64,000 nucleotides of DNA from Spirochaetota bacterium (GCA_003247225.1 QKAK01000028.1:7289-71288); one strand, 5' to 3'. Shown: positions 1-45,145, counted from the first letter of the stretch. The notes: generated from the sequence alone by a model not told the origin. Made by a program: numbers and translations.

Positions 1-382
1 AGCGGACTCCGGGGAACAGGTCGTCCATCATGTTCCTGGCTATGGTCTCCGGCTTGTTCGAGACTATGGCCAGCGGAGCGCCCGAGGCGGCCAGCGATTC
101 GAGCGCCTCTACCGCGCCGGGGTAGGGGCGGGAGTCGCCCGAGCCGGCGGCCTCGTACAAGTCGTAGGCTTCCCGATATAATCGATCCATATCGCCCGAC
201 GCCTCCGGCGGCAGGGCGCTCCGCAGCAGGTTGGAGAAGCCGCGCCCGACCATGGTCCGGTACGAGCCGAGCGGGTGCTCCGGCCATCCCTTGGAGCGCA
301 GGAATCCGTTCATGATCGACGCTATGTCGCCGAGCGTGTCGACCAGGGTACCGTCGAGGTCGAATATGAAGGCCTTGATCAT
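1..382 (-). CDS. HAD-superfamily phosphatase (phosphoglycolate phosphatase-like); 3' end cut by window edge
   Basis: Reverse-strand translation from ATG at 382..380 reads MIKAFIFDLDGTLVDTLGDI... (HAD motif I DxDGT) and later LAIVSNKPE. It is absent from the ORF track because it runs off the window. Confidence 0.7.
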   Translation of the reverse strand, partial: MIKAFIFDLDGTLVDTLGDIASIMNGFLRSKGWPEHPLGSYRTMVGRGFSNLLRSALPPEASGDMDRLYREAYDLYEAAGSGDSRPYPGAVEALESLAASGAPLAIVSNKPETIARNMMDDLFPGVR

Positions 383-484
383 TGGCGTACGGTCCTTAAT
401 AGTAGGTATCTGCCGCTAGAGTAAGGATTATACCGGATCCGGTCAACCGCGGCGCGAATTCGGGTTCCGTGGAGGAAGGGGCGC

Positions 485-1279
485 ATGGGAAAGAAGACTG
501 ACGGCGGCGCCGAGGCCTTCGACCGGTTCTTTCGGGAGCTGTTCGAGGGGCGATGGGACGGCCTGCGCGAGGCGCTGCTGGCGCCCGGCGACGCGGTCGA
601 TTACGCCTGCGGCCTCCGGGAGCCGTACAGGCTCGACTCCGCCTCGGTCGCCGCCGCCCGCTGCCTCCGCCTGCCCGACTCGGGCGAGATCCTCGACGCC
701 TGCGCGGCGCCCGGCGGCAAGAGCCTGGTAGTCGCGTCGCGGATGGCCCCCGGAGCGCGGCTGCTGTCGAACGAGCTGTCGAGCGACAGGCGCCGCCGCC
801 TGTCCGACGTGCTCGACCGCCACCTGCCCGGGGAGACGAGGGCCAGGGTGACGGTGTCGGGCTTCGACGCGGCGGCGGCCGGGGGCCGGGCCTCGGAGCG
901 GGGCCGCTTCGGCTCCGTCCTGCTCGACGCGCCGTGCTCGAGCGAGCGGCACGTGCTGCGCGACGAGGCCGCGCTGGCCGCGTGGAGCCCGGCGCGCGTC
1001 AAGTTCCTGGCCAGGAGGCAATGGTCCCTCTTGTCGAGCGCCTTCCTGATGCTGGCGCCGGGCGGGTGCCTGGTCTACGCTACCTGCGCCCTGTCGCCCG
1101 AGGAGAACGACGGCCCGATGCGGCGCCTGTTCGGCAAGTACGGAGGGCTGGCCGAGCTCGACCTCCCGGGCGCGGACGCCGGAGCGGAGCGGACCGAGTA
1201 CGGGATCCACTACCTGCCCGATCGCGCCTCGGGGGCCGGCCCGCTCTACGTGGCCAGGATACGCAAGCGCTCAGTCTGA
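485..1279 (+). CDS. NOL1/NOP2/Sun (RsmB/RsmF-type) RNA m5C methyltransferase, short form
   Basis: 264 aa. Motifs: SAM motif DACAAPGGKS, catalytic Cys motifs DAPCSSERH and YATCALSPEEN. SD GGAGGAAGGGG lies upstream. Confidence 0.75.
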   Translation: MGKKTDGGAEAFDRFFRELFEGRWDGLREALLAPGDAVDYACGLREPYRLDSASVAAARCLRLPDSGEILDACAAPGGKSLVVASRMAPGARLLSNELSSDRRRRLSDVLDRHLPGETRARVTVSGFDAAAAGGRASERGRFGSVLLDAPCSSERHVLRDEAALAAWSPARVKFLARRQWSLLSSAFLMLAPGGCLVYATCALSPEENDGPMRRLFGKYGGLAELDLPGADAGAERTEYGIHYLPDRASGAGPLYVARIRKRSV

Positions 1280-1612
1280 CGCGAGGTCCTCTTCCTTGCC
1301 GCCGGCCTTCTTGAAGGCCTGCTCCTTCGCGTCGATCTGGGCGCGCAGGGCCTCGATGTTGTCGATGGTCTCGCGGACGGCCGGGGAATCCTTGCCGACG
1401 CTCTTCTGGCCCTTCTCGACGAGCACCTCGTAGACCTCGGCGCCGAGCCTGGCCGTCAGCTTCTCTGCTTGGTTGCGTAACTGGACTACCTCGAGCTTGA
1501 GCACGCCTTTCTCGCCCCATTCCTGGGCCTTGTCGCCGGCCTGCCTGGCCAATTCCTTCGACGCGCTGATTCCCTGGTCGACGAGTTGCTTCATGCGCTC
1601 GGAAAACGTCAT
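1271..1612 (-). CDS. small coiled-coil protein (phasin-like), function uncertain
   Basis: Internal ATG at 1612 of ORF 1271..1690 is preceded by AAGGAG. The 113-aa product (MTFSERMKQLVDQG...) is helical and charged. Its 3' end overlaps the convergent gene by 9 nt. Confidence 0.45.
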   Translation of the reverse strand: MTFSERMKQLVDQGISASKELARQAGDKAQEWGEKGVLKLEVVQLRNQAEKLTARLGAEVYEVLVEKGQKSVGKDSPAVRETIDNIEALRAQIDAKEQAFKKAGGKEEDLASD

Positions 1613-1704
1613 TCGCTGCTCCTTGTCGTTCGTGATACTGCAGTAATCTAAAATCGCCCGGAATCGGTAAAAAATCAATGACGTATCCACTGTATCGTGC
1701 TATC

Positions 1705-1733
1705 TTGACAAGGGTTCGGCTAGGCACTATATC
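1705..1733 (+). promoter_or_regulatory. sigma70-type promoter of the nrdR-nrdD operon
   Basis: TTGACA (1705..1710), 17-nt spacer, TATATC (1728..1733), about 115 nt upstream of nrdR. Confidence 0.5.
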
Positions 1734-1770
1734 TAGCTGTCGTTTTAATTTTGGATACTATAACTGGTAT
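1724..1770 (+). promoter_or_regulatory. tandem NrdR boxes
   Basis: GCACTATATCTAGCTG (1724..1739) and ATACTATAACTGGTAT (1755..1770) each match the 16-bp NrdR-box consensus acaCwAtATaTwGtgt at about 11/16. Their centres are 31 bp apart. Box 1 overlaps the -10. Confidence 0.55.
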
Positions 1771-1847
1771 ATGCGTTATAGCAAGAATCGTACCAAGTCG
1801 TGCGCCGCCGTTGTTCCCGCTGTTCGATTCTGTGGAGGTTTTAAAAA

Positions 1848-2318
1848 ATGAGGTGCCCTCACTGCGGTTCGATGGATGATCGCGTCACGGACTCGCGTAC
1901 GCTCGCCAACGGCGAGAGCATCCGGAGGCGCCGCGAATGCCTGTCCTGCGGCTTCCGCTTCACGAGCTACGAGCGTATCGAGGAAAAACCGCTGATGGTG
2001 ATCAAGCGCGACGGCAGGCGCGAGCCCTTCGACCGTCAGAAGCTCGAGCGCGGCCTCCAGCGCGCCCTCGAGAAGCGCCCGGTCTCCCAGATGACCATTG
2101 AGAACATCCTCAACGAGATAGAGGACGACGCGGCGATGCTCGGAAAGGGCGGCAACGAGGTGCAGAGCTCCTCCCTCGGCGAGATGACCCTGCACAAGAT
2201 GTACGACCTGGACAAGGTGGCGTATATCCGCTTCGCAAGCGTGTATAGGAAATTCGAGACCATGGACGAATTCATGCAAGAGATCGAGCGGCTAGAGAAC
2301 GCTCGCGAGGGAGAGTGA
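1848..2318 (+). CDS. nrdR: transcriptional repressor NrdR
   Basis: MRCPHCGS..DSR...RRRRECLSCGFRFTSYERIE is the Zn ribbon, followed by an ATP-cone. SD GGAGG lies 9 nt upstream. Confidence 0.95.
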   Translation: MRCPHCGSMDDRVTDSRTLANGESIRRRRECLSCGFRFTSYERIEEKPLMVIKRDGRREPFDRQKLERGLQRALEKRPVSQMTIENILNEIEDDAAMLGKGGNEVQSSSLGEMTLHKMYDLDKVAYIRFASVYRKFETMDEFMQEIERLENAREGE

Positions 2319-2319
2319 G

Positions 2320-4407
2320 ATGGCCGAGACGCAGCAGGTCTTCCCCGAGTGGCGCAGCTTCCTGAAGACCGAGGACGGGCAGGGGCGCTACGTCGCCAAG
2401 CGCTCCGGCAGCGTAGAGCGCTACGATCGTAGCCGCATCGAGTCAGCCATCGAGAAGGCGTTCAAGGCCGTCAAGGGCGTAGCCGACAAGGACCTGGTCC
2501 AGCGCATCGCCGCCGACGTCGAGTCCCGCCTGGCGATGCTGCTGTCGGGCCGGCACCCGAACTCGATCCCGGCCATCGAGGAAATCCAGGACCTCGTCGA
2601 GACGGCCCTGATAGACGCGAAGGAGGCCCAGGTCGCCCGCGCCTATATCCTGTACCGCGCGAAGCGAGAGGCCGTCCGCGACGCCCAGCGGCTGATGCTC
2701 GACATCAACACGACGATGGACGGCTACCTCGCCCAGGTGGACTGGCGGGTCAAGGAGAACGCCAACGTCAACTACTCGCTCGGCGGCCTGGTCCTGCACA
2801 ACTCCGGCACCGTCACCGCCAACTACTGGCTCAAGAACATCTATCCCGAGGAGATCGCAGAGGCCCACCGCGAGGCCGACTTCCACATACACGACCTGTC
2901 CATGTTCTCCGGCTACTGCGCCGGCTGGTCGCTCAGGCAGCTGATCAACGAGGGCCTGGGCGGCGTACCGGACAAGATCACCAGCTCGCCGGCCAAGCAC
3001 CTGTCGACGCTCGTCCAGCAGATGGTCAACTTCATGGGCATACTGCAGAACGAGTGGGCCGGCGCCCAGGCCTTCTCGAGCTTCGACACCTACCTGGCCC
3101 CCTTCGTCAAGGCCGACGCGATGAGCCCCGAGTCGGTCAAGCAGTGCGTCCAGAGCTTCATCTTCGGCGTCAACACGCCGAGCCGCTGGGGCAGCCAGGC
3201 GCCGTTCACGAACGTCACCCTGGACTGGACCTGCCCGGCCGACCTGCGCGACCGCCCCGCGGTCGTCGGCGGCAAGGAGCAGGCCTATACCTACGGCGAC
3301 TGCCAGCCCGAGATGGACGTGATCAACCGCGTGTTCATCGAGCTGATGCTCGGCGGCGACGCGGACGGCCGCGGCTTCCATTACCCGATACCGACCTATA
3401 ACATCACCCGCGACTTCGACTGGGACTCGGACAACGCGAGGCTGCTGTTCGAGATGACGGCCAAGTACGGCACCCCGTATTTCCAGAATTTCGTCAACTC
3501 GGACCTCGACCCCGGCGACGTGCGCTCGATGTGCTGCCGCCTCCAGCTCGATAAGCGCGAGCTCCGCAAGCGCGGCGGCGGCCTGTTCGGCTCCGACGAG
3601 CTGACCGGCTCGATCGGCGTCGTCACCCTGAACATGCCGCGCCTCGGCTACCTGGCCGACGGCAAGAGCGACTTCTACCGCAGGCTCGACAGGCTGATGG
3701 ACCTGGCCGCCAGGAGCCTGTCGATCAAGCGCAAGGTCTGCTCGAGGCTGCTCGAGGGCGGGCTCTTCCCGTACACCAGGCGCTACCTGCGCACCTTCGA
3801 CAACCACTTCTCGACCATCGGCCTCGTCGGCATGAACGAGTGCTGCCTGAACTTCATGGGCAGGAGCATCGCCGAGCCGGAGGGCAAGGCCTTCGCCGAG
3901 GAGGTCCTCGAGCACATGCGCAAGCGCCTGCAGGACTACCAGGTCGATACCGGAGAGCTGTTCAACCTGGAGGCGACCCCGGCCGAGAGCACCTCGTACC
4001 GGCTGGCCAAGCACGACCGCAAGCGCTATCCCGATATCATATCGGCGGGAGCGGAGGAGCCGTACTACACCAACTCGACCCAGCTGCCGGCGGATTTCAC
4101 CGACGACCTGTTCGACGCGCTCGACCACCAGGAATCGCTGCAGTCGAAGTACACCGGAGGCACGGTGTTCCACGTATTCCTCGGGGAGGCGGTCGACGAC
4201 TGGAGGGCGCTCCGCGACCTGGTAAAGTCGATAGCGGCCCGCTACCGCATACCGTACTACACTATATCGCCGACCTTCTCGGTCTGCCCCGTCCACGGCT
4301 ACGTCTCCGGCGAGCATTTCAGCTGCCCGAAGTGCAAGGCCGAGAAGGAGGCGAGGATCAGGGAAGAGATAGCCGTGCTCGAGAGCGAACTGAACGGCCC
4401 GTCCTGA
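2320..4407 (+). CDS. nrdD: anaerobic ribonucleoside-triphosphate reductase large piece (lacks glycyl-radical domain)
   Basis: 695 aa with N-terminal ATP-cone (VAKRSGSVERYDRSRIESAIEKA). NrdD-type segments include GGTVFHVFLGE, RSMCCRLQLD and the C-terminal Zn site SVCPVHGYVSGEHFSCPKC. The ORF stops 25 codons after CPKC with no RxxGY radical motif. Confidence 0.9.
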   Translation: MAETQQVFPEWRSFLKTEDGQGRYVAKRSGSVERYDRSRIESAIEKAFKAVKGVADKDLVQRIAADVESRLAMLLSGRHPNSIPAIEEIQDLVETALIDAKEAQVARAYILYRAKREAVRDAQRLMLDINTTMDGYLAQVDWRVKENANVNYSLGGLVLHNSGTVTANYWLKNIYPEEIAEAHREADFHIHDLSMFSGYCAGWSLRQLINEGLGGVPDKITSSPAKHLSTLVQQMVNFMGILQNEWAGAQAFSSFDTYLAPFVKADAMSPESVKQCVQSFIFGVNTPSRWGSQAPFTNVTLDWTCPADLRDRPAVVGGKEQAYTYGDCQPEMDVINRVFIELMLGGDADGRGFHYPIPTYNITRDFDWDSDNARLLFEMTAKYGTPYFQNFVNSDLDPGDVRSMCCRLQLDKRELRKRGGGLFGSDELTGSIGVVTLNMPRLGYLADGKSDFYRRLDRLMDLAARSLSIKRKVCSRLLEGGLFPYTRRYLRTFDNHFSTIGLVGMNECCLNFMGRSIAEPEGKAFAEEVLEHMRKRLQDYQVDTGELFNLEATPAESTSYRLAKHDRKRYPDIISAGAEEPYYTNSTQLPADFTDDLFDALDHQESLQSKYTGGTVFHVFLGEAVDDWRALRDLVKSIAARYRIPYYTISPTFSVCPVHGYVSGEHFSCPKCKAEKEARIREEIAVLESELNGPS

Positions 4408-4448
4408 CCGGCGCCGCGGACGCATATACTAAATCCTGGGAGGGAACG

Positions 4449-4982
4449 ATGGAGACGAGGGAGAACAAAGAGGCGAGGCTGGCGGCGCTCAAGGCCGATC
4501 TGCTATGCGTCGAGGGGACGACCACCGAGGTGTACAGCCGCATCGTGGGCTACTATCGATCGGTCAAGAACTGGAACGCCGGCAAGCGGGCCGAATTCGG
4601 CAAGCGCCGGGAATACGCCTTTCCCTCGGTAGGCGGCGCGAACGCCGAGCCGGCAGAGCCGTCCGCGCAGGCCGTCGCCGCGGACGAGCGCCGGGACTCG
4701 GACGTCGCCCGCGAGCCTTCGTCGTACACGCTGTTCACGAGGGCGGCCTGCCCGAACTGCCCGCCGGTACGCGACTTCCTCCGCTCGAGCGGCCTGCCCG
4801 GCGTGGTCGTCGACGTCGACACCGAAGACGGGCTCGAGCTGGCCAGGCGCTACGAGGTCATGTCGACGCCGACCGCCATCCTGATGGGCCCCGGCGGCGA
4901 GCAGCTCGGCCGCGCCTACGCGCGCTCCCAGCTCGAGAAGATGGTCAAGCCGCGGCTCGAGCTCGAGGTGGCGACGGCGTAG
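4449..4982 (+). CDS. detached NrdD glycyl-radical peptide fused to a thioredoxin-fold (CPNC) domain
   Basis: ATG 4449 lies behind SD GGGAGGG (4438..4444). The N-terminal part contains EVYSRIVGYYRSVKNWNAGKRAEFGKRREY, the class III RNR glycyl-radical signature. The C-terminal part (YTLFTRAACPNCPPVRDFL...VMSTPTAILMG) has a thioredoxin/glutaredoxin-like CxxC and a cis-Pro. Confidence 0.7.
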   Translation: METRENKEARLAALKADLLCVEGTTTEVYSRIVGYYRSVKNWNAGKRAEFGKRREYAFPSVGGANAEPAEPSAQAVAADERRDSDVAREPSSYTLFTRAACPNCPPVRDFLRSSGLPGVVVDVDTEDGLELARRYEVMSTPTAILMGPGGEQLGRAYARSQLEKMVKPRLELEVATA

Positions 4983-4984
4983 CG

Positions 4985-5710
4985 ATGCGCCTAGGCATCC
5001 AGAAGACCAGCCTCGTCGACTATCCGGGACGCGTCGCCGCCGTGCTGTTCACGGCCGGCTGCGCGTTCCGCTGCCCGTACTGCCATAACCCCGACTTGGT
5101 CGCGCCGATCGACGACGCCGGTACCCACAGCGACGACGGTATTCCCGGCGACGACGACCTCGTTTCGGTCGAGGAGGCGCTCGCCTTCATCGAGCATCGC
5201 AAGCCGGTGCTCTCGGGCGTCGTCATATCGGGCGGCGAGCCGACTATCCATGACGGGCTGCCGGCCCTGGCCGCCGCCATAAAGCGGCTCGGCCTGCTCG
5301 TCAAGCTCGACACGAACGGCTCGAGGCCGGAGCGCATCGCGGCGGTCGGCGCCGACTACGTCGCGATGGACCTGAAGACGAGGCCGGGGCGCTACGCCGA
5401 GCTGTGGCCGGGCGCCCCGACCGACGCCGCGGACAGGATACGCGAGGCCGCGCGCGCGGTACGCGGGTCGGGAGCGGAGTACGAGTTCAGGATTACCTGC
5501 GCCCCCGGCTTCGTTACCGAGGAAGACGCCGAGGCGATCTCCGAGGTCCTCGAGCCGGGCGACTCCGTGTACCTGCAGCGTTATCGTCCGGGGCGAGTGC
5601 TCGACCCGGACTGGGCCGCGGGCGTCTCGCCGTATACCGAGGAGCGGCTGGAGCGCATCCTGGCCATCGTCAGGCGCGCCGCGCCCAAGGCCCGCCTCAG
5701 GGGCTTCTGA
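4985..5710 (+). CDS. nrdG: anaerobic RNR activating enzyme (radical SAM)
   Basis: Internal ATG of ORF 4505..5710, starting MRLGIQKTSLVDYPGRVAAVLFTAGCAFRCPYCHNP (CxxxCxxC cluster). It begins 2 nt after the previous stop. Confidence 0.85.
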   Translation: MRLGIQKTSLVDYPGRVAAVLFTAGCAFRCPYCHNPDLVAPIDDAGTHSDDGIPGDDDLVSVEEALAFIEHRKPVLSGVVISGGEPTIHDGLPALAAAIKRLGLLVKLDTNGSRPERIAAVGADYVAMDLKTRPGRYAELWPGAPTDAADRIREAARAVRGSGAEYEFRITCAPGFVTEEDAEAISEVLEPGDSVYLQRYRPGRVLDPDWAAGVSPYTEERLERILAIVRRAAPKARLRGF

Positions 5711-6647
5711 GCCATTCGGCCGCCGCGTCCGCGACGCCGTCGTAATCGTCAGCCCCGAACCAGCGCACGCCGGGGATCGCCCGCATGAACGTGAGCTGCC
5801 GCTTCGCGTAGCGCCTCGTGTGCAGCTTGATCGCGTCGGCCACCGCGCGGACGTCCCGCCGCCCGTCCGGTCCCGTCGGAGCGTCCAGGAATTCGGCGTA
5901 GCCTATCGCCTTCATGCCTGGGGCGTCGCGCCCGTAGCCGGCCGCTATCAGCGCGTCCGCCTCGCGCTCGAGGCCGGACGCGAGCATCGCGTCGACGCGG
6001 GCGCCGATGCGAGCGTACAGCTCCTCGCGCGGGCGGTCCAGGCCGACGACCAGGCAGTCCCATCGCGGGCGCGGCTCGGTCGGCGGCTCGTAGCCGGACA
6101 ACGGTCGGCCAGAACATCGGTAGACCTCGAGCGCCCGCGTCGTGCGGTACAGGTCGGCCGGCGCTATGCGGGCGGCCGATACGGGGTCGACGGCCTCGAG
6201 CTCGGCGCGGAGAGCCGCCGGCCCGCGGACGGAGAGCTCCCGCCGGAGCTCCGCCCGTATCGAGGCGTCCGCCGGAGGGGCCGGGGGCGGGCCGTAGATG
6301 AAGCCCTTGACGTAATAAGCGGTGCCGCCCGACAGGACGGGTAGGGCTCCCTCGGCGCCGGCCCTCTCGCAGGCCTCGTCGGCCAGGCGGCAGAATTCGC
6401 CGACCGAGAACGGCTCGGACGGGTCGAGTATGTCGATGAGCTCGTGCCTGGTCTCGCGCCGCTCGGCGGGGCTCGGCTTGGCGCTGCCGATATCGAGGCC
6501 GCGGTAGACCTGGGCGGAGTCGGCGGATACGACGACGACCGGCTTCCTGGGAAGCCGGTCGTCGCGTCGGAGTCGCTCGATGGTCGCCGTCTTGCCGACG
6601 GCGGTCGGGCCGAAGAGTACGAGTACCTTATTCGAACCGGTACTCAA
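5697..6647 (-). CDS. miaA: tRNA dimethylallyltransferase
   Basis: P-loop LFGPTAVGKT, then SADSAQVYRGLDIGSAKP, with MiaA-like sequence over the full length. It overlaps nrdG convergently by 14 nt. Confidence 0.9.
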   Translation of the reverse strand: MSTGSNKVLVLFGPTAVGKTATIERLRRDDRLPRKPVVVVSADSAQVYRGLDIGSAKPSPAERRETRHELIDILDPSEPFSVGEFCRLADEACERAGAEGALPVLSGGTAYYVKGFIYGPPPAPPADASIRAELRRELSVRGPAALRAELEAVDPVSAARIAPADLYRTTRALEVYRCSGRPLSGYEPPTEPRPRWDCLVVGLDRPREELYARIGARVDAMLASGLEREADALIAAGYGRDAPGMKAIGYAEFLDAPTGPDGRRDVRAVADAIKLHTRRYAKRQLTFMRAIPGVRWFGADDYDGVADAAAEWLRSP

Positions 6648-6816
6648 TCTGCTTGCCGAACACCTGGCGCATCGACAGGGAGACTACCTTGCCGTTGTTC
6701 TTCTCGACCTCGGGGGTCTTGAGAACGGCCAGCTGGTACGATCGCTTGTTGACGGCGACCGTGAATTCGTACGCGTTGCCGTCGTACTCGAAAAGATCCT
6801 CTAGCGGCATGCTCAT
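6628..6816 (-). CDS. small protein resembling RNA polymerase omega subunit
   Basis: 62 aa. NAYEFTVAVNKRSYQL fits the omega core pattern N-x-Y-x-[LF]-x-x-x-x-x-[KR]R-x-x-Q. It has an ATGA overlap with zapA and SD GGAGGGGAG. Confidence 0.4.
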   Translation of the reverse strand: MSMPLEDLFEYDGNAYEFTVAVNKRSYQLAVLKTPEVEKNNGKVVSLSMRQVFGKQIEYRFE

Positions 6817-7154
6817 GGCTCCCCTCCGAAAGACTGCCCGGAGGCGTCGGCCTCGGGCTCTTCGCGCAGCGTTTCATCGATCTTGGCGATCAGCCGCTCC
6901 GCCACCGCGCCGATGTCGGGGGCCGCGGAAGGGCGGGCGCTCGCGTCGATCCGTTCCCTGTATAGCTCGTCGACCAGGAATATCCCGGCGAGTATCGAGG
7001 CCTTCAGCGGGTCGTCGACCTTGGAAGACGACCGCACGGTCTCTATCTTGGAGCGCAGGTACGCGATCAGGGACTCGACGTACTCGCGGCTCTCATCGGT
7101 CTGGATGACGAACGAGGCGCCGAGCAGCTCTACGCGAACCGTCTCGACCGTCAT
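6813..7154 (-). CDS. zapA: cell division protein ZapA
   Basis: VRVELLGASFVIQTDESREYVESLIAYLRSKIE...LKASILAGIFLVDELY shows the typical ZapA pattern. Confidence 0.7.
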   Translation of the reverse strand: MTVETVRVELLGASFVIQTDESREYVESLIAYLRSKIETVRSSSKVDDPLKASILAGIFLVDELYRERIDASARPSAAPDIGAVAERLIAKIDETLREEPEADASGQSFGGEP

Positions 7155-7155
7155 C

Positions 7156-7560
7156 CTAGAAAATATCGAGGGCGTCGGCGCTCTCTTCGGTCGCCGGTTC
7201 CGCGGGCTCGCCCGAGGGACCGGGTTCCAGGGCCTCGGGCTCTACCGCGGCCTCGGGTTCCGGCTCGGCGGGCGACGCCGCCTCGGCGGCCGGGGACGGC
7301 CGGGCCGCGCCCGAGGTCGCGGCCTCGTGTACCGCGTCCTCGAAGGAGTCGAGCTTGCGCAGGGCCTCTATGATGCCCTGCTCGATACGCGACTGATCCT
7401 TCTGGAATTCGGATACGAGGCCCTCGAGCTCGGCCACGCGGCCCTCGGCGGCCGAGAGCCCCGAGCGCATCGAGGCGTTCTCGGCGCGGAGCGCGGCGAT
7501 CAGCGCCACGGCCTTCTCTACGCGCGATTCGAGCGCGCGGACCTGCTCGAGACTGATCAT
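7156..7560 (-). CDS. coiled-coil protein, ZapB-like, with Pro/Glu/Ala-rich tail
   Basis: N-terminal heptad-rich MISLEQVRALESRVEKAVALIAALRAENASM... It is adjacent to zapA. Confidence 0.4.
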   Translation of the reverse strand: MISLEQVRALESRVEKAVALIAALRAENASMRSGLSAAEGRVAELEGLVSEFQKDQSRIEQGIIEALRKLDSFEDAVHEAATSGAARPSPAAEAASPAEPEPEAAVEPEALEPGPSGEPAEPATEESADALDIF

Positions 7561-7564
7561 GCGA

Positions 7565-7921
7565 TTAGGCCTGGGCCGACTTGACGCGCTCGACGATGGC
7601 CTTGAACGCGGCGGGGTCGCGGACGGCTATGTCGGCGAGCGCCTTGCGGTCGATGGCCATGTTCGCCTTGGCGGCGGCCTCGATGAAGCGGCTGTAGGTG
7701 ATGCCCTCGGCCCTGCACGCGGCGTTGATGCGCGTGATCCACAGGGCGCGGAAGGTCGGCTTCTTGTCGCGGCGATCGCGATAGGCGTACGACAGCGCCT
7801 TGGCGACCGCGTCCTTCGCGGTCTTATGGTTGGTGGACCTGCGTCCGTAGTATCCTTTGGCAAGCTTGAGGATCTTCTTGCGGTGATCCTTTCGCCTGGT
7901 GCCGTCAACTGCTCTGGGCAT
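7565..7921 (-). CDS. rplT: 50S ribosomal protein L20
   Basis: [29 protein letters not shown]... SD AAGGAG. Confidence 0.95.
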
Positions 7922-8057
7922 TGCGATTCTCCTTGGAAAATATGAACCGGCCGTCGGGGAACGTCCCTCGTCGACCGGCGCGCCTAAGCGGCGCCGAGCC
8001 TCATCCTATCGTCGAGTCCGTCGGCGGCCCTAACGGGGAGAAAGGCCGCTGACCGGC

Positions 8058-8258
8058 TTAACCGTAGGGGAGAAGCTTCTTCTTGATCTGGTATACGGGG
8101 CCGGAAGCTACGAAGCCGGCCTTGCGGAGCTTGCGCTTGCGCTTCGAGCTCTTCTTGGTGAGGATATGGCGAAGGTTCATCTTCTTGTACTTGACCTTGC
8201 CGTCCGCGCTCAGCGTATAGCGTTTAGAGGCAGCCCTCTTCGTCTTCATCTTAGGCAT
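8058..8258 (-). CDS. rpmI: 50S ribosomal protein L35
   Basis: [26 protein letters not shown]... Confidence 0.95.
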
Positions 8259-8271
8259 TACGATCCATCCT

Positions 8272-8850
8272 TCAGGCTTTAGTATCCGGCGCGGCGTCCG
8301 GCTGGGGCCGCTGCGGCTCCGGCTTCTTGATCGCCGGGGCCTTCGGTATAAGCATCATCGACATGAAGCGCCCTTCCATCCTCGGCGGGCTCTCCATGGC
8401 GTATATTCCCTCGATCTTGGTCAATACGCTCTTCAGGACTTCCTCGCCGATCTCGGTATGGGCGAGCTCGCGTCCCCTGAAGCGTATGGTCACCTTGACC
8501 TTGTTGCCCTCGAGCAGGAACGTGCGCACGTGCTTGGACTTGAAGTCCAGGTCGTGGTCGTCGATCTTGGGCTGCATCCGGACTTCCTTGATCTTGACGA
8601 TCTTCTGGTGCTTCCGGTTGTCCTTGAGCTTCTTTTCCTGCTCGAACTTGAATTTGCCGTAGTCGAGGATCTTACAGACCGGCGGATTCGATTGCGGCGC
8701 TATCTCGACGAGGTCGAGACCGAGCTCCTTGGCCATCCTGAGGGCCTCGGCCGTCGGCAGGACGCCCTTCTGCTCCCCGGCATCGTCGATTAACCGTACT
8801 TCACGGACCCTGATCTGTTCGTTGGTCCGCAGATTCTTATTGTCCGCCAA
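8272..8850 (-). CDS. infC: translation initiation factor IF-3
   Basis: [22 protein letters not shown]...[16 protein letters not shown]. The start codon is TTG (8850..8848), 4 nt after GGAGG. Confidence 0.95.
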
Positions 8851-8990
8851 TGGACCTCCTTCGGCTTACCCTGCAAATTTCTATAGTGCTAAGCATTGTA
8901 GCATAGAGCCGCCGGTCGAGTCAAAGGGTGCGGCGTTCCCGGATAGGGAAGGCTCTATCGCGAATGTAAATAACGCGTAAGCTCGAATAT

Positions 8991-9019
8991 TTGACAGCTA
9001 TGGCTTCGAGTAGTATCGT
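8991..9019 (+). promoter_or_regulatory. putative promoter giving a leaderless mRNA for the 9026 ORF
   Basis: TTGACA (8991..8996), 17 nt, TATCGT (9014..9019), then 6 nt to ATG 9026. There is no SD. Confidence 0.35.
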
Positions 9020-10308: not shown

Positions 10309-10521
10309 TGAGCGAGCCTATCCGCCTCCTCGGGCGCATAGGCGTCCCCGATGCCTCCGCGCCCGCCTAAGCCCCTCCCGAGCCTGTTTTTCTTGACAAC
10401 TCCTGGAATAGGTTCCATCATTCGAAGACTTAGTACGAAACGGTTCTACTGTTCCGTCGGGGGCTCGGCCGCGTCGAACGACGTCGCGAAGGGCCTCCAA
10501 CCTTCCTTAAGGAGCGAGTCT

Positions 10522-12618
10522 ATGGCCTACACGACCGACCTCATCAGGAACGTGGCCCTAGCGGGCCACGGTAGCACGGGTAAGACGAGCCTGCTCGAAC
10601 ATATCCTCTTCAGCGCCGGCGCCATCCAGAAGCCGGAATTGCTCGAGTCCGGTAAGACGGTGAGCGATTACGCTGAGGAGGAGATCGAGCGTAAGATTTC
10701 GGTACACGCGTCGCTCGCGCACGCGATAGTCGGCGACGTAAAGATCAACCTGCTGGACACCCCCGGATCGTCCGATTTCATCGGCGACGTGATCCTGGCC
10801 TTGAGGTCCTGCGAGTCCGCCATCGTACTACTGGGCGCCAGGGCCGGCGTGCAGATCGAGACCATAAAGATCTGGCGCAATCTCGAGAGCCGCGCCAAGC
10901 CGCGGATGCTGTTCGTCAATAAGCTCGACGAGGAGCGCGCCTCGTTCTCCGGCGCCTTAGCCGACGTAAAAGAGAAATTCAAGCAGGCCCCCGTGGCCAT
11001 TACCATACCGATGGGCGAGGGCGCCGACTACAAGGGCGTCATCGACGTGCTGAACCAGAAGGCCTATCCGACGCCGGCGGCGCACGACCAGAAGGAGGCG
11101 GCGGCCGCGATCCCCGCCGAGTACGCCGACGCGGTGGCCGAGGCGCGCGCCGCGCTGTCCGAGGCGGCCGCCGAGGGCGACGACGAGCTGATGGAGAAAT
11201 ACCTGTCCGAGGGCGAGCTGGCCCAGGACGAGATAGTCAAGGGCATCTCCGAGGCGCTGGCGGGCAATCGCGTCGTGCCGGCCTTCGCCGGCTCGGCTAC
11301 CAGGAACTCCGGCGTCGCGGCCCTGGTCGACTTCCTCGTCGCGATCGCGCCCGACCCGTCGAAGCACTCGGCCGAGAAGGTGAGCGCCCCCGACGGCGGC
11401 CAGTCCGACCTGCTCGTCGACGAGCGGGGCCCCCTGGCCGCCCTCGTGATCAAGACCCAGATCGACCAGTTCTCCGGGAGGCTGTCGTACGTCAAGGTGG
11501 TCCGCGGCGCGCTCGCCTCCGATACCGAGTACCTGAACGTGCAGGAGAACAAGAAGGAGAAGGCCGGCAAGCTCTATACCGCCCAGGGCAAGAAGCTCGA
11601 GGAGATCCACGAGCTGCGCGCCGGCGACATAGGCATCCTGGCCAAGAGCCCGTCGCTCAAGACGAACGAGACCCTCGCCGCGCCGGACGCGCCGGTGTCG
11701 TTCCTGCCCCTCCGGCTGCCCCAGCCGATCCACGCGGTAGCGATCAGCGCGGTGTCCAAGAAGGAAGAGGACAAGCTGTCCGAGCTGCTCCATAAGGCCT
11801 CGGAGGAGGACAAGACCTTCACGATACGCTTCGACGCCGAGACCAAGGAGACGGTGATCGCCGGCATGGGCGAGCTGCACCTGAACATCATGCTCAACAA
11901 GGTGCGGACCCAGCAGAAGATCGAGGTCGAGACCCGCGTGCCGCGCGTCGCGTACCGCGAGACGATCACCAAGCATTCAGGCGGCGAGTATACCCACAAG
12001 AAGCAGACCGGCGGCCACGGCCAGTACGCCCGCGTGGTGATGGAAGTGGAGCCGCTGCCGCGCGGCGAGGGTTACAAATTCGAGAACAAGGTCTTCGGCG
12101 GCGCGGTGTCCAAGGGCTTCATCCCCGGCATCGAGAAGGGCATCCACCAGGCGATGGAATTCGGTACGATAGCCGGCTATCCGGTCGTCGACATCAAGAG
12201 CATCCTGACCGACGGCAAGGAGCACCCGGTCGACTCCTCCGAGATGGCGTTCAAGATCGCGGCGCGCGGCGCGTTCCGCGAGGCCTGCAAGGCCGCCGGC
12301 GCCACGCTGCTCGAGCCGATCATGCGGCTGATGGTATTCGTCGACGAGAAGTACCTCGGCGACGTGATGTCCGACCTCTCGGGCCGCCGCGGCCGCATCT
12401 CCGGCCAGGAGCCGATAGGCGGCGGCATCGTCGAGATCAAGGCCGAGGTGCCCCAGGCCGAGCTGCTGCGCTACTCGATCGACCTCAAGGCGATGACCAG
12501 CGGCACCGGCGGCTTCGAGGTCGAGTTCGACCACTACTCGCCGATCTCCGGCAAGATCGCCGACGACGTGGCCAAGGCCGCGGCCGAGTTCAGGATCCAG
12601 GAAGCCGAGGACGAGTGA
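10522..12618 (+). CDS. elongation factor G family GTPase (EF-G paralog)
   Basis: Internal ATG behind AAGGAG. Motifs: G1 AGHGSTGKTS, G3 DTPGSSDF, G4 NKLD. EF-G domains II-V follow (GELHLNIMLNKV, HKKQTGGHGQYA). Confidence 0.85.
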   Translation: MAYTTDLIRNVALAGHGSTGKTSLLEHILFSAGAIQKPELLESGKTVSDYAEEEIERKISVHASLAHAIVGDVKINLLDTPGSSDFIGDVILALRSCESAIVLLGARAGVQIETIKIWRNLESRAKPRMLFVNKLDEERASFSGALADVKEKFKQAPVAITIPMGEGADYKGVIDVLNQKAYPTPAAHDQKEAAAAIPAEYADAVAEARAALSEAAAEGDDELMEKYLSEGELAQDEIVKGISEALAGNRVVPAFAGSATRNSGVAALVDFLVAIAPDPSKHSAEKVSAPDGGQSDLLVDERGPLAALVIKTQIDQFSGRLSYVKVVRGALASDTEYLNVQENKKEKAGKLYTAQGKKLEEIHELRAGDIGILAKSPSLKTNETLAAPDAPVSFLPLRLPQPIHAVAISAVSKKEEDKLSELLHKASEEDKTFTIRFDAETKETVIAGMGELHLNIMLNKVRTQQKIEVETRVPRVAYRETITKHSGGEYTHKKQTGGHGQYARVVMEVEPLPRGEGYKFENKVFGGAVSKGFIPGIEKGIHQAMEFGTIAGYPVVDIKSILTDGKEHPVDSSEMAFKIAARGAFREACKAAGATLLEPIMRLMVFVDEKYLGDVMSDLSGRRGRISGQEPIGGGIVEIKAEVPQAELLRYSIDLKAMTSGTGGFEVEFDHYSPISGKIADDVAKAAAEFRIQEAEDE

Positions 12619-17879: not shown

Positions 17880-19892
17880 ATGCACCTCGACTACGAGGCG
17901 GAGCTCAACCCGGAGCAGTACGCCGCCGTCACGACGATAGAGGGCCCGGTCCTGATCATAGCCGGCGCCGGCTCGGGCAAGACCCGCGTGATCACCTACC
18001 GCGCCGCGTACATGCTCGAGAAGGGCGTGCCGCAGTCGGCCATCCTCGCCCTGACCTTCACGAACAAGGCTGCCAGGGAGATGTCCGAGCGCGTCCGCTC
18101 GGTGACCGGCAAGAAGCTCCAGAACCTGACGGTCAGCACCTTCCACTCGTTCGGCGTCAAGATACTGCGCAAGGAGATCCACCGCCTCGGCTGGCGCGAC
18201 AACTTCTCGATCTACGACGAGGTGGACAGGAACCAGCTGATCAAGGACTGCGCCCGCGAGGTCGGCTTCAAGGCGGACGCGTTCGACGCCCAGAAGGCCG
18301 GCATGGTGTTCTCCGACGTCAAGACCGGGCGGAAGAACTGGGAAGGCGTCGACGACGGCTACGAGAAGGTCTACGACGAGTACCAGGCCGCCCTCAAGGC
18401 CTACAACGCGGTCGACTTCGACGACCTGATCGGACTGCCGATCGCGGTGTTCGAGCGCTTCGAGGACGCGCGCGAGGCCTACCGCGACCATTACCGCTAC
18501 ATCATGATAGACGAGTTCCAGGACACGAGCATCCAGCAGTACCGGCTGATGCGGCTCCTGTCGCGCGACAATATCTGCGTGGTGGGCGACGACGACCAGT
18601 CGATCTACTCGTGGCGCGGCGCCAACTTCGAGAACATCACCAACTTCGAGCGCGACTGGCCCGAGCGCAGGGAGATAACGCTCTACCGCAACTACCGCTC
18701 GACGACGACCATCCTCGACGCCGCCAACAGCGTGATCCAGAACAACACGAACCGTAAGGAGAAGGACCTCGAGAGCCCCCACGAGGGCGGCGCGATGATA
18801 GAGGTCTACGCCCCGGAGAGCGAGATCGAGGAGGGCGAGTTCATAGCCCGGGCGATCAAGGAGATCAAGCTCAAGGAGAAGCTCAAGTACGACCAGTTCG
18901 GCGTGCTGATGCGCACGAACAACCTGTCCCGGCACCTCGAGGAGGCCTTCCTGGCGGCCGACCTGCCGTACAAGGTCTCGGGCGGCACCAGCTTCTTCCA
19001 GCGCAAGGAGATCAAGGACGTCATCTCGTACCTGCGCGTGATAGCCAACCCGGACGACGACGTCAACCTGATACGCATAGCCAACGTGCCGAGGCGCGGC
19101 ATAGGCCGGCGAGCGATGGAGCTGCTCGCCGACATCGGCAAGCGGCACGGCCGCTCGATACGCGGCGCGATGCAGCTCGTGCGCAGCGACCACCAGATAG
19201 ACTTCCCCGAGCGGCTCAGGCAGGACATCGACTCGTTCCTGACGCTGCTCGAGTACGAGCGCGAGGAGCTCCTGGGCCGCCGTAACCTCGGCGCCAAGGT
19301 CCGCAAGCTCGTCGACACCATCGACTACTGGGGCTACCTCGTCTCCGAGAACCAGCATAACGACAAGGCCGCCAAGTGGAAGTTCCTCAACGTCGAGAGC
19401 CTTATCAAGGGCATCGAGACCTGGGAGAAGGACCCGGATAACCTCGACCCGAGCCTGTTCGCGTGGCTGAACCGCATCTCGCTGATCACCCGCGACGACC
19501 AGGAGGAGGACGACTCCGGCAAGGTCAACCTGATGACCATCCACGCGGCCAAGGGGCTCGAGTTCGACGTCGTGTTCGTCGCCGGCTGCGAGGACGGCCT
19601 CATCCCGCACGCGCGCTCGCTCGAGGAGGGCGAGGGCAACGTCGAGGAGGAGCGGCGGCTGTTCTACGTCGCCATCACGCGGGCCCGCAAGCGACTGCTC
19701 CTGACCGCCTGCAAGCGGCGGCGCCGCAACTCGATGCCGGTCGACTGCGTGCCGTCCCCCTTCCTCGCCGAGATCCCGGAGGAGCTGCTCTGCTGGCGCG
19801 AGGAGGAGGAGCCGCTGACCGAGGACGAGCAGGCGGACGTCTGGGCGAGCGTTCACAGGATGTTCGCGCCGCCCGAGGAAGACGCGTCGTAG
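17880..19892 (+). CDS. pcrA: UvrD/PcrA-family ATP-dependent DNA helicase
   Basis: LNPEQYAAV...AGAGSGKTRVITYR, DEFQDTS, VGDDDQSIYSWRGA, TIHAAKGLEFDVVF, EEERRLFYVAITRA. Confidence 0.9.
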   Translation: MHLDYEAELNPEQYAAVTTIEGPVLIIAGAGSGKTRVITYRAAYMLEKGVPQSAILALTFTNKAAREMSERVRSVTGKKLQNLTVSTFHSFGVKILRKEIHRLGWRDNFSIYDEVDRNQLIKDCAREVGFKADAFDAQKAGMVFSDVKTGRKNWEGVDDGYEKVYDEYQAALKAYNAVDFDDLIGLPIAVFERFEDAREAYRDHYRYIMIDEFQDTSIQQYRLMRLLSRDNICVVGDDDQSIYSWRGANFENITNFERDWPERREITLYRNYRSTTTILDAANSVIQNNTNRKEKDLESPHEGGAMIEVYAPESEIEEGEFIARAIKEIKLKEKLKYDQFGVLMRTNNLSRHLEEAFLAADLPYKVSGGTSFFQRKEIKDVISYLRVIANPDDDVNLIRIANVPRRGIGRRAMELLADIGKRHGRSIRGAMQLVRSDHQIDFPERLRQDIDSFLTLLEYEREELLGRRNLGAKVRKLVDTIDYWGYLVSENQHNDKAAKWKFLNVESLIKGIETWEKDPDNLDPSLFAWLNRISLITRDDQEEDDSGKVNLMTIHAAKGLEFDVVFVAGCEDGLIPHARSLEEGEGNVEEERRLFYVAITRARKRLLLTACKRRRRNSMPVDCVPSPFLAEIPEELLCWREEEEPLTEDEQADVWASVHRMFAPPEEDAS

Positions 19893-21121: not shown

Positions 21122-22051
21122 TCACTCAGCATCCCTGATCAGCGTCCAGGTCAGTTCGTGCTTGTTGTGCCAGAGGTGCGTCACGCGGGAGCCGGGTATA
21201 GCGGCGAAGCGGGCGACCGTCTGGCGGTCCCACTCGGCGCCCTGCATCTTGATCGTGCAGACGAAGTTGCGCGCCAGGCCCGAGTCGAGCCACAGCGACA
21301 CCCAGTCGTACAGGGCCGGCGGGTAGCAGATCACGTCGGAGCAGAACCAGTCGACCGGGCCGATGTCCTCGGGCTTGATCGTGAACGCGTTATGCTTGAT
21401 GAAGCTGACGCCGGGCATCGCGGCGACGCGGTCGTCGATCGGCGCGCGGTCTATGGCGACGACCTCGGCGCCGAGGCCGGCGAGGGCCCAGGTCCAGCCT
21501 CCGGGGCAGGCGCCCGCGTCGACGCAGCGCCGTCCGGGGCCCGGCATCGCTCCGGCCGAGACGAGGGCCTCCCATAGCTTGCGGTAGGCGCGGCTCGGCG
21601 GGCCCTCCCTGTCCTCGGCGAAGTCGAGGCGGCCGTTCGGCCACGGGCTCGAGCAGGCGGCCGATGCGAGCAGGGTATGCTCGTCGAGCAGCGTGAACGC
21701 GCCCATCGGCGCGTTCGGCGCCGAGAACGGGAAGGCCTTGGGCTTGGACGGCAGCGGCGGCAGGGCGGCGGCTATCAGCTCGCCTCGCCTGGCGTTGCGG
21801 GTCGGGTAGTGGGCCCAGTTGCGCTGCATGCCCTTGAGGAGGCGGGCCGCGTCCGAGATCGAGCCGAATTCGGCGGTGAACGGCTCCTTCCAGACGTTCC
21901 TCGTCCAGTAGGCCGTCCGTTCCTCGCCCATGACGGTCAGGAGGTCGCCGTCGCGGCGATACGGTTCGGGCAGCTCGCCTTCGAGATGGGCCATGAATCC
22001 GGGCGCCGCGTGGTAGCAGGCGGCGTCTAGGCGCTTAATCGTATCGCTCAT
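21122..22051 (-). CDS. rlmM: 23S rRNA 2'-O-ribose C2498 methyltransferase RlmM-like (FtsJ fold)
   Basis: PSRAYRKLWEAL, SAM motif DAGACPGGWTWAL, WFCSDVICYP. It has an ATGA overlap with the upstream 973-aa gene. Confidence 0.7.
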   Translation of the reverse strand: MSDTIKRLDAACYHAAPGFMAHLEGELPEPYRRDGDLLTVMGEERTAYWTRNVWKEPFTAEFGSISDAARLLKGMQRNWAHYPTRNARRGELIAAALPPLPSKPKAFPFSAPNAPMGAFTLLDEHTLLASAACSSPWPNGRLDFAEDREGPPSRAYRKLWEALVSAGAMPGPGRRCVDAGACPGGWTWALAGLGAEVVAIDRAPIDDRVAAMPGVSFIKHNAFTIKPEDIGPVDWFCSDVICYPPALYDWVSLWLDSGLARNFVCTIKMQGAEWDRQTVARFAAIPGSRVTHLWHNKHELTWTLIRDAE

Positions 22052-28051: not shown

Positions 28052-29296
28052 CTACGGGTTGACGATGCGTATCCCCTCGACCGAGTCCGCGTCGTCGTCG
28101 GTGAAGGGGCGGCCGTAGAGGTACTCGAACAGGAACCTGAAGTCCTCGGGCGCCATCATGTGGAACTCGATGCCGAAGTAGCCCTCCTTCGTACCCGCGT
28201 AATGCCTGCGTATCGTGCCGCTCGCCTCGACGGTGCGTTTCTTCGCCCTCAGCCGCACCGACACCGCGGTGCCTTCCTTGAGCGCCTGGATGAGGCGCTG
28301 GTCGCCGCAGGCGAACAGGAGGCCGCCGGCCGATACGTCGACCACCTGCGTCCGGTAGTCGTCGTCGAGCCTCGGCGCGTCCTTGAAGTAGCCGTGGAGC
28401 TTCAGCGACCACGAGAAGACCCGGGCGAAGGCCAGGAAGGTCTCGACGGTGCGCAGGTCGAAGGGCGGCTTTCCCGCCTGCCTGTTGACTACCGCGGCGT
28501 AGCCGATCGCGTAATCCTGGAACAGGATCGGCACGATAAGCTCGGACAGCACGTTCGCGGAGCGCTTGGACCGCTCGAGCCTGACGATCTCGTCCTCCGC
28601 GAAGTCCTCCTCCATGCCCGAGTCGATGAAATGCTGCTTGAAGTCGTCGCGGGTCAGGATGGTACGCTCGGCGAAGGGGTCGCTACGCGGCAGGCCGCCG
28701 AGCGCGGTCGGCAGGTAGAAGCAACGGCCGGTCGCGGCCGCCAGGCGCTCGGGGACCGTCTCCGGCTTGCGGTCCTTGAACATCACGATGCCGCGGTCGC
28801 TGGCGACGGCCAGGGCCTTGCGCTCGAATTCGGCCATCAGGCCGCGCAGGTCCGACGGGTCGAAGTACGGCGACGGCTCCGGCTCGCGGGACGGGCCCGA
28901 GCCCGAGCTCGACGGGAAGTCCAGGTCGTAGCGCTCGCCGGCGAACGCGAAGGAGGCGGCCAGGTCGCCCGGGGGCGGCAGGCGCACGAAGCGCCTGCTC
29001 AGGTTCTTGTACAGCTTCTCGGGCATCGACGTGGCGAAGCGGCGTTCTCCCGGCTCGAGCATCGTCGCCTTGAAGGCTATCGTCTGGCCCCTGACGTTGT
29101 AGCGGAAGTCGAACGAGGCGCCTTTCCGCTGCAGGTCGAGCGGCAGCTCGTGGCCGAAGCTCAGCTTGTCCTTCTCGACCGCCAGGATGCGCACGGTCCA
29201 TTCGCCGCCGCCGGCGCTCATCGTTATGGGCGAGCGCTCGCGCATCGCCGTCGACAGGAGAAATTCTCGCTCTATGTTTTTTACTAGCACGGCCAT
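28052..29296 (-). CDS. PilZ-like domain protein (possible c-di-GMP receptor, noncanonical motifs)
   Basis: 414 aa. There is a C-terminal DVSAGG (DxSxxG) and an N-terminal RRFVR (RxxxR), but they are not in canonical pairing. SD GGAGGA. Confidence 0.45.
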   Translation of the reverse strand: MAVLVKNIEREFLLSTAMRERSPITMSAGGGEWTVRILAVEKDKLSFGHELPLDLQRKGASFDFRYNVRGQTIAFKATMLEPGERRFATSMPEKLYKNLSRRFVRLPPPGDLAASFAFAGERYDLDFPSSSGSGPSREPEPSPYFDPSDLRGLMAEFERKALAVASDRGIVMFKDRKPETVPERLAAATGRCFYLPTALGGLPRSDPFAERTILTRDDFKQHFIDSGMEEDFAEDEIVRLERSKRSANVLSELIVPILFQDYAIGYAAVVNRQAGKPPFDLRTVETFLAFARVFSWSLKLHGYFKDAPRLDDDYRTQVVDVSAGGLLFACGDQRLIQALKEGTAVSVRLRAKKRTVEASGTIRRHYAGTKEGYFGIEFHMMAPEDFRFLFEYLYGRPFTDDDADSVEGIRIVNP

Positions 29297-37802: not shown

Positions 37803-37813
37803 GAGAAGGATCG

Positions 37814-41130: not shown

Positions 41131-41207
41131 ACTAGGATACGGCCGGTCCCGGCTCGCTGACACGGGCGGGGATCGGATATTTGTAAACGGGCATACGGGA
41201 GGGGAAT

Positions 41208-42437: not shown

Positions 42438-42440
42438 GCC

Positions 42441-45143: not shown

Positions 45144-45145
45144 CG

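Follow-up and report, generated by a model that had tools for sequence, protein, structure and literature searches.

The subject of this analysis is a locus for an anaerobic (class III) ribonucleotide reductase (RNR), an oxygen-sensitive enzyme that supplies DNA precursors in the absence of air, in a 64,000-nucleotide stretch of DNA from a Spirochaetota bacterium (GCA_003247225.1, QKAK01000028.1:7289-71288), hereafter called the window. Four genes follow one another on its plus strand, nrdR, nrdD, a 177-codon open reading frame (ORF) and nrdG, and all features given below lie on that strand unless a minus sign is shown. nrdR (1848..2318) codes for a 156-residue transcriptional repressor of nrd genes with Zn_ribbon_NrdR and ATP-cone domains (TIGR00244, 188.6 bits, cut-off 124.65), and a single nucleotide separates its end from the start of nrdD. 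nrdG (4985..5710), which encodes the radical-SAM activase (TIGR02495 NrdG2, 155.4 bits, cut-off 131.15), starts 2 nt after the stop codon of the 177-codon ORF. No promoter-like or terminator-like sites were found between the genes of this unit, and no Rfam family matched positions 1..9000 of the window. Two candidate NrdR boxes, to which no strand is assigned, lie 31 bp apart upstream of nrdR (1724-1739, GCACTATATCTAGCTG; 1755-1770, ATACTATAACTGGTAT). Each fits 11 of the 16 positions of the NrdR-box consensus, and 48 of 81 related loci have a similar pair in the corresponding place, compared with 18 of 81 shuffled loci. The layout proposed by the initial annotation, which had been made from the sequence of the window, is borne out in these respects.

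nrdD (2320..4407) encodes a protein of 695 residues, the core subunit, with an ATP-cone (residues 24-117, 2389..2670; PF03477, E 4e-20), a catalytic barrel, a zinc ribbon and a C-terminal helix. As had been noted at the outset, it has no glycyl-radical domain. Residues 146-677 match positions 1-532 of the 562 positions of the NRDD profile (PF13597, E 4.9e-177); NF006126 is matched at 1083 bits over its positions 4-656 of 684, and TIGR02487 at 477 bits (cut-off 326). The core can be aligned to T. maritima NrdD (4COI/4U3E). In this alignment, Cys200 (2917..2919) corresponds to the active-site Cys125 of strand beta-A, the finger loop M404-C405-C406-R407 (3529..3540), site of the thiyl radical, to S328-C-C-R331, and Glu551 (3970..3972) to residue 495; the latter is the putative proton source in disulfide-based reduction, a role assigned after PMC9669993. 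The zinc ribbon (4285..4335) is recognizable in the sequence by its ligands C656, H659, C669 and C672. The beta-A Cys, the MCC finger loop and the active-site Glu are kept in all 120 relatives compared, cores and fused proteins alike, and the C-H-C-C zinc pattern in 118 of them. The frame ends with a TGA codon shortly after the zinc site, as the annotation had claimed, although we count 23 residues rather than its 25 codons. No glycyl-radical motif was found on the nrdD polypeptide C-terminal to the zinc ribbon; the motif, SRIVG34YY, sits on the next ORF.

That ORF (4449..4982) encodes a protein of 177 residues, the small subunit, in a frame different from that of nrdD. The intergenic spacer of 41 nt (4408..4448) contains a Shine-Dalgarno sequence, GGGAGGG (4438-4444), placed 4 nt before the ATG at 4449, exactly as initially described. 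From its N-terminus the protein comprises a head helix, a glycyl-radical domain (residues 23-57, 4515..4619; TTTEVYSRIVGYYRSVKNWNAGKR...) with the radical residue Gly34 at 4548-4550, a disordered linker that varies in length and composition (residues 58-88, 4620..4712) and a thioredoxin-fold domain (residues 89-166, 4713..4946). Residues 20-56 match positions 527-562 of the 562 in the NRDD profile (E 1.6e-8). The two ORFs are thus exactly complementary on that profile, which supports the reading of the locus as a two-piece enzyme; judged from their sequences, the pair possesses the motif that the core alone lacks.

The predicted thioredoxin fold of the C-terminal part was corroborated by several approaches. 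PF00462 (Glutaredoxin) matches residues 94-135 at 24.4 bits (cut-off 22.9). AlphaFold2 predicts a beta-hairpin around Gly34, then a linker with a predicted local distance difference test score (pLDDT) below 50 at residues 61-86, and a beta-alpha-beta-alpha-beta-beta-alpha domain at residues 90-165 with pLDDT >90. In that model the C101-P-N-C104 motif (4749-4760) precedes a helix (104-114), and the cis-Pro of T140-P141-T142 (4866-4874), P141, precedes a strand (142-146). Foldseek returned 166 PDB matches at E<=0.001, and the best 50 are almost all thioredoxins or thioredoxin-fold designs. A profile of the small-subunit family matches P. furiosus PDO (1A8L, 3.7e-11), T. thermophilus thioredoxin (2LST) and the MJ0307-type thioredoxin (1FO5), and the NrdH structures 1R7H/4FIW weakly (0.005-0.011). 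Of the C(V/M)QC and WSGFRP motifs, which we take to be the hallmarks of NrdH-redoxins, the first is replaced by CPNC in the small subunit and the second was not found there.

Both domains of the small subunit are under purifying selection, as judged from sequence comparisons with three relatives: the ratio of non-synonymous to synonymous substitution rates (dN/dS) is 0.08-0.19 for the head and glycyl-radical domain and 0.22-0.42 for the thioredoxin domain, against ~0.8-1.3 for the linker. The corresponding values for the core are 0.04-0.11. The GC content at third codon positions (GC3) of the 177-codon ORF is 0.93 in its own frame, a typical value for genes of this 68% GC window, and 0.67 and 0.51 in the other two. 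In 118 small-subunit sequences, T26-R37, N41-W42-N43 and K46 show little or no variation, and C101, C104, P141 and T142 show none. Across 120 clusters of the family, a CxxC follows the glycyl-radical motif in 119 (CPNC in 106) at a distance of 42-118 residues, and the cis-Pro motif is TPT or SPT in 114. No curated family model matches the small subunit above its cut-off, and its homologues go by the names of 'hypothetical protein', 'thiol reductase thioredoxin' or 'anaerobic ribonucleoside-triphosphate reductase' in the databases.

The junction and its recurrence among relatives

A database clustered at 90% identity holds 864 homologues of the small subunit. The best 120 of these are 148-228 residues long, cover 83-100% of the query at 39-100% identity, and those with names come almost all from Spirochaetes or Spirochaetota assemblies. 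At E<=1e-30 there are 153 clusters at 50% identity, nearly all of them small proteins beginning at the head helix. A genome scan gave 80 loci, and the statistics on the split refer to the 67 that are split and readable on both sides. In all 67 the core lacks a glycyl-radical domain. The gap between the nrdD stop and the start of the small ORF ranges from -23 to +239 nt (median 42), and the two ORFs stand in all three relative frames (31/18/18). The start codon is ATG in 64/67 loci, and 47/67 have a perfect GGAGG upstream. The arrangement of stop, Shine-Dalgarno sequence and start, together with the thioredoxin fusion, which the annotation had advised looking for in related genomes, is therefore a recurrent one. 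It is found in cultured isolates as well, among them Treponema lecithinolyticum ATCC 700332, Treponema sp. OMZ 840 and Marispirochaeta associata JC231, and in the complete genomes CP091737.1, OY764216.1 and OZ271854.1. Two contigs labelled Paratractidigestivibacter (CAVIQW010000007.1, locus L053) and Marinamargulisbacteria (CAYUBI010000025.1, locus L060) also carry a spirochaete-type split operon, with cores 66-68% identical to that of the window; these may reflect either horizontal transfer or mis-binning.

In canonical relatives the zinc ribbon leads nearly directly to the glycyl-radical motif (CPTCGAETEVYSRIVGYY, with four residues between them), whereas the split loci carry ~45 extra residues, 20-39 after the core CxxC and 25-29 before the Glu of TEVY in the small protein. 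In the window, these form the core tail (residues 673-695, 4336..4404; KAEKEARIREEIAVLESEL), an amphipathic heptad helix, and the head helix of the small subunit (residues 4-20, 4458..4508; pLDDT 83-89 in the AlphaFold2 model). The tail has its heptad hydrophobic residues at +8, +12, +15, +19 and +22 after the CxxC, the first four of which are conserved in 60-63 of the 67 split loci; those of the head, at positions 7, 11, 14, 18 and 21, are conserved in the split loci too. In 46/67 loci the head measures 26 residues from M1 to the Glu of TEVY.

The two helices co-vary. When tail position +19 is hydrophobic, head position 4 is not (30/30), and the reverse holds in 33/34 cases (Fisher 2e-17, phylogeny ignored). 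Tail position +23 and head position 4 are jointly hydrophobic in 27/27 cases, and the net charges of tail and head are anti-correlated (Spearman -0.58), again in statistics that ignore phylogeny. At the level of sequence, a distal tail that tracks the proximal head is the pattern predicted by an antiparallel helix pair. Two unsplit relatives, each found on two contigs, point in the same direction: in P0191 and P0177, with inserts of 46 and 52 residues, respectively, both helices are present and joined via a loop of 5-6 residues. AlphaFold2 predicts for P0191 a helix at 675-694, a loop at 695-700 and a second helix at 701-716 (pLDDT 88-97). Downstream follow the glycyl-radical hairpin, a linker predicted to be disordered (757-801) and a thioredoxin domain modelled with confidence; the model matches solved class III RNRs. 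The split of the other loci thus lies within the loop of a helix-loop-helix. The notion of amphipathic helices docking the two pieces, put forward in the annotation, is in this way supported and refined to an antiparallel helix-loop-helix, intact in unsplit relatives, whose halves co-vary.

Tail and head share the sequence KEAR, and we considered and rejected a tandem duplication as their origin. They have in common a pentapeptide and a 9-nt repeat, beyond which their heptad registers differ, and other clades show no similarity between tail and head. The 9-nt direct repeat itself, GAGGCGAGG (4348-4356 and 4470-4478), encodes an in-frame E-A-R in both helices. Loss of 122 nt by recombination between its copies would bring the two ORFs together again in one frame, leaving a single helix, and the product would resemble fused relatives with inserts of 26-30 residues.

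The initial annotation had tied the thioredoxin fusion to the split. The fusion is indeed present in the split forms, but it is also common in unsplit ones: the best 120 homologues of a fused protein comprise 46 single-chain proteins with core, glycyl-radical and thioredoxin domains (806-923 residues), 73 cores without a glycyl-radical domain and 1 canonical NrdD without a thioredoxin domain. Overall, three break patterns occur. The core may be separate from a glycyl-radical/thioredoxin protein, all three parts may form one chain, or, in a Woesearchaeota locus (L076), a full NrdD is followed by a separate thioredoxin ORF of 91 residues (3219-3494) and then by nrdG. The order core, glycyl-radical domain, thioredoxin domain, nrdG is thus kept while the breaks differ. 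The NrdD of the same Woesearchaeota metagenome-assembled genome (JAHWIM010000080.1; L076:939-3212) carries an NrdR-type zinc ribbon (MKCPFCSSETKVIDKR...CGGCGKRFTTYERVE) at its N-terminus, directly before the ATP-cone and core, and its sequence suggests a fusion of NrdR with NrdD (NrdR::NrdD).

Split and fused forms intermingle in a bootstrapped neighbour-joining tree built from the core alone. A series of fused forms, placed beside split lineages with 97-100% support, starts with P0177 (insert of 52 residues) and continues with lineages that have inserts of 46, 26 and 15 residues and then with inserts of 9, 30 and 30, to end with 4 in L059 and P0145. On the basis of these sequences, the most economical reading appears to be a re-fusion followed by stepwise loss of the hairpin down to the canonical 4-residue junction, and such shrinkage fits a hairpin that is required only as long as the chain remains in two pieces. 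Bootstrap values at the deep nodes are 2-57, and the large fused clades with canonical junctions may be either ancestral or re-fused. Of the single-chain forms, P0219 (723 residues) is a canonical NrdD that has lost the thioredoxin domain; it nests with a split locus (L033) at 97% bootstrap, and the redoxin must hence be dispensable in at least one lineage.

A proposed two-subunit enzyme and its alternatives

From these observations we infer how the subunits assemble, where the radical resides and which path the electrons take. We consider it likely, from sequences and models, that the nrdR-nrdD-small subunit-nrdG operon specifies a class III RNR made of two obligate polypeptides, held together by a helical zipper and equipped with a tethered reductant; the two-piece enzyme proposed initially is consistent with every computational test that was run on the sequences and models. 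The tail and head helices would pair antiparallel, in the manner of a zipper, where the chain is normally continuous, so that the loop bearing the Gly can enter the barrel as it does in single-chain enzymes. NrdG and S-adenosylmethionine would place the radical on Gly34 of the small subunit, from where it would reach the substrate by way of the finger-loop cysteine. Reduction would turn C200 and a finger-loop cysteine into a disulfide, which the tethered CPNC thioredoxin domain may re-reduce after each turnover. The thioredoxin domain would in turn be re-reduced by an enzyme whose gene lies elsewhere, probably thioredoxin reductase.

Several points weigh against this proposal. The co-variation statistics take no account of phylogeny, and the packing of tail against head is deduced from secondary structure, loop length and pLDDT. 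Our comparison covered loci, and the split genomes may have a second, full-length nrdD elsewhere. The finger loop has a Met before the two cysteines (MCCR) in 120/120 relatives rather than the SCCR of NrdD2, and given this Met, formate could be the reductant. Lastly, no thioredoxin reductase or ferredoxin:disulfide reductase was found to be conserved beside the operon in 81 loci.

The simplest alternative is that a normal single-chain nrdD has been interrupted by a sequencing or assembly frameshift, or has recently become a pseudogene. Two ORFs in different frames only 41 nt apart are what such an accident would leave, but the same break recurs in 67 loci, which come from assemblies made independently and from cultured isolates, with three frame relations, gaps of -23 to +239 nt and a conserved Shine-Dalgarno sequence and ATG. 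Moreover, the ~45 residues of the two helices beyond the canonical junction are conserved on both sides of the break, and purifying selection acts on the genes; an artefact or a pseudogene is therefore, in our judgement, next to inconceivable. The split might also be only apparent if recoding, by frameshift or stop-codon read-through, or protein splicing restored a single chain. In the window, the frame of the small ORF is indeed open upstream into nrdD (ORF 3840..4982), and a single stop codon lies between the ORFs in several of the 18 same-frame loci, as inspection showed. However, at 68% GC chance alone would be expected to keep such a frame open upstream, the searches revealed neither an intein domain nor an RNA family, and the segments on either side of the break, helices of 20 residues, are much too small to be the halves of a split intein. 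As the frame relation (31/18/18) and the gap, from overlap to 239 nt, are unconstrained while a strong Shine-Dalgarno sequence and the ATG are the conserved features, recoding or splicing is very improbable.

Two further alternatives accept the small protein as a real product and assign it another role. It might be a spare part like GrcA/YfiD that rescues a full-length NrdD from another locus, in which case the truncated nrdD beside it would be a remnant or have another role. Pyruvate formate-lyase provides a known case of a free-standing glycyl-radical protein (PMC13450708). Yet the adjacent core is under strong purifying selection with every catalytic residue kept, it is devoid of a glycyl-radical domain of its own in all split loci, its tail co-varies with the head of the small protein, and gene order and the Shine-Dalgarno sequence suggest co-translation. 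The small protein thus looks like an obligate subunit, and we give the spare-part explanation little credence. The main remaining alternative, which we regard as unlikely although less so than the preceding ones, retains the two-piece enzyme with formate as the turnover reductant; the thioredoxin domain would then have a non-reductant role, protecting the enzyme, sensing redox conditions or repairing cysteines oxidized after exposure to oxygen. In class III RNRs a Cys trio and a Glu have been linked to disulfide-based, thioredoxin-dependent reduction (PMC9669993, PMC4493059). Thioredoxin is the electron donor of N. bacilliformis NrdD; T. maritima NrdD likewise requires a protein reductant (PMC9669993, PMC4493059). 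Double-Cys enzymes with the Met are equipped for formate or thioredoxin, while SCCR, without the Met, marks thioredoxin-only enzymes (PMC9669993). The MCCR loop, the absence of a linked reductase gene and the existence of P0219, a close relative without a thioredoxin domain, speak for this alternative. On the other hand, all cores retain the Cys/CC/Glu set of NrdD2 (C200, C405/C406 and E551 in the window), the CxxC and cis-Pro are conserved almost family-wide in a domain with dN/dS of 0.22-0.42, and the redoxin adjoins or is fused to nrdD in all three break patterns. There is also a precedent in NrdB, to which a Grx can be fused that reduces the RNR efficiently (PMC6187632). Our preference accordingly stays with the two-subunit enzyme carrying its own reductant.

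It is tempting to go one step further and to view the small subunit as an exchangeable, self-reducing 'radical cartridge', although we offer this tentatively and find it rather doubtful. Oxygen cleaves solely the polypeptide bearing the glycyl radical. With a reversible zipper, the cell could discard the damaged 19-kDa piece and re-arm the intact 78-kDa core. If so, this RNR would have a built-in, GrcA-like repair strategy, and would be the first case of a glycyl-radical enzyme with a radical that acts in trans as a matter of course. The repeated changes from split to fused and back, together with decay of the hairpin once the chain is re-fused, would then track changes in oxygen exposure among spirochaete lineages.

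Surroundings of the operon

All-against-all clustering of the ORFs from 81 loci identified nrdG, which lies downstream in 76 of them, as the sole conserved neighbour; an RsmB-like methyltransferase, an Lhr helicase and miaA occur occasionally. In the window, a 139-residue ORF without a Pfam domain (1271-1690, -) diverges from the nrdR promoter region. A family of ORFs in a similar position, with 22 occurrences (the window plus 21 related loci), may be its counterpart. Two long shadow ORFs overlap the operon, one of 660 residues antisense to nrdD (2443-4425, -) and one of 380 residues, the frame of the small ORF extended upstream (3840-4982, +). These are by-products of 68% GC and a GC3 >0.9, not genes; antisense shadow ORFs are found in 69/81 loci.

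Farther away, the window contains genes for EF-G (10351-12618), UvrD (17880-19892), a GAF-SpoIIE phosphatase (25075-27042) and a PilZ protein (28052-29296, -). Housekeeping genes lie at 36720-47362: an mraY-like gene (36720-37802), ftsW (37814-38941), ftsA (39775-41130), ftsZ (41208-42437) and topA (45146-47362). An ORF of 973 residues (22048-24969, -) is coding-like (GC3 0.89) and has no Pfam match at E<=1e-5.

Significance and relation to known systems

In glycyl-radical enzymes the radical domain is thought to exit the barrel to meet the activase and then to return. With this domain on a polypeptide of its own, activation, docking onto the core and exchange of a damaged subunit would become separable experimentally. 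The tethered thioredoxin domain would likewise offer a defined system in which to trace the route of a dithiol protein to the disulfide in the active site of such an RNR. A split class III RNR should surprise specialists, and gives access to both glycyl-radical domain dynamics and reductant delivery. Split, hairpin-fused, shrinking-insert and canonical forms together make a case study of protein breakage and re-joining, and the split layout is present in oral Treponema species. The initial annotation held the architecture to be undescribed. This stands for the split, as the full-text literature searched, which does not include all journals, contains no description of a class III RNR with a detached glycyl-radical domain, a zipper or a glycyl-radical/thioredoxin subunit. 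As for the redoxin fusion, Grx fusions to NrdA, NrdB, NrdD and NrdJ have been catalogued, including one Grx::NrdD, a single unsplit sequence from Lachnospiraceae TWA4 that was not studied (PMC6187632).

The closest known systems are the thioredoxin-dependent class III RNRs of N. bacilliformis and T. maritima (4U3E/4COI), which share with the present enzyme the barrel, zinc ribbon, glycyl-radical motif, NrdG, beta-A Cys, double-Cys loop and Glu, as well as a protein dithiol as the reductant, a function that we propose here (PMC4493059, PMC9669993). Those enzymes are single-chain proteins with a free thioredoxin and an SCCR loop, whereas here a second polypeptide carries the glycyl-radical domain and, in covalent linkage with this, the redoxin, and the loop is MCCR. 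The likeness to GrcA/YfiD lies in a small free-standing glycyl-radical protein that inserts, here by prediction, in trans into the barrel of a large glycyl-radical enzyme. GrcA, however, replaces the damaged domain of a pyruvate formate-lyase that has its own, belongs to the formate-lyase class and is devoid of a zipper helix or redoxin domain; in none of the 67 split loci does the adjacent core have a glycyl-radical domain that could be replaced.

Fusion of a redoxin to the radical-harbouring subunit of an RNR, as a dedicated reductant, has a counterpart in the Grx::ATP-cone::NrdB of Facklamia ignava (PMC6187632), if the role proposed here is correct. That protein differs in that it belongs to class I, its fusion is N-terminal and its radical subunit is of the metal/tyrosyl type. 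The minimal thioredoxin fold with a CxxC is shared with archaeal PDO and Grx-like thioredoxins (1A8L, the nearest in sequence; MJ0307, 1FO5) and with NrdH; unlike these, the version described here is a single domain with CPNC, tethered to a glycyl-radical peptide. Splits are known in other RNRs. The class II enzyme is divided into NrdJa and NrdJb in Pseudomonas aeruginosa and phages (PMC9669993), and the 'splits' of phage nrdD genes are mostly due to introns or inteins (PMC3653736). Like NrdJa/NrdJb and the genes-in-pieces NrdA of phage Aeh1, the present locus would yield a catalytic subunit from two adjacent ORFs whose products must associate; its break is conserved, each ORF has translation signals of its own, and neither an intein nor an RNA family was found. 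NrdJa/NrdJb and Aeh1 NrdA belong to other RNR classes, have no glycyl radical, and differ in their break points and docking elements. Taken together, the conserved split with its glycyl-radical/thioredoxin subunit is a variant of a known enzyme, the class III RNR, and not a new kind of system.

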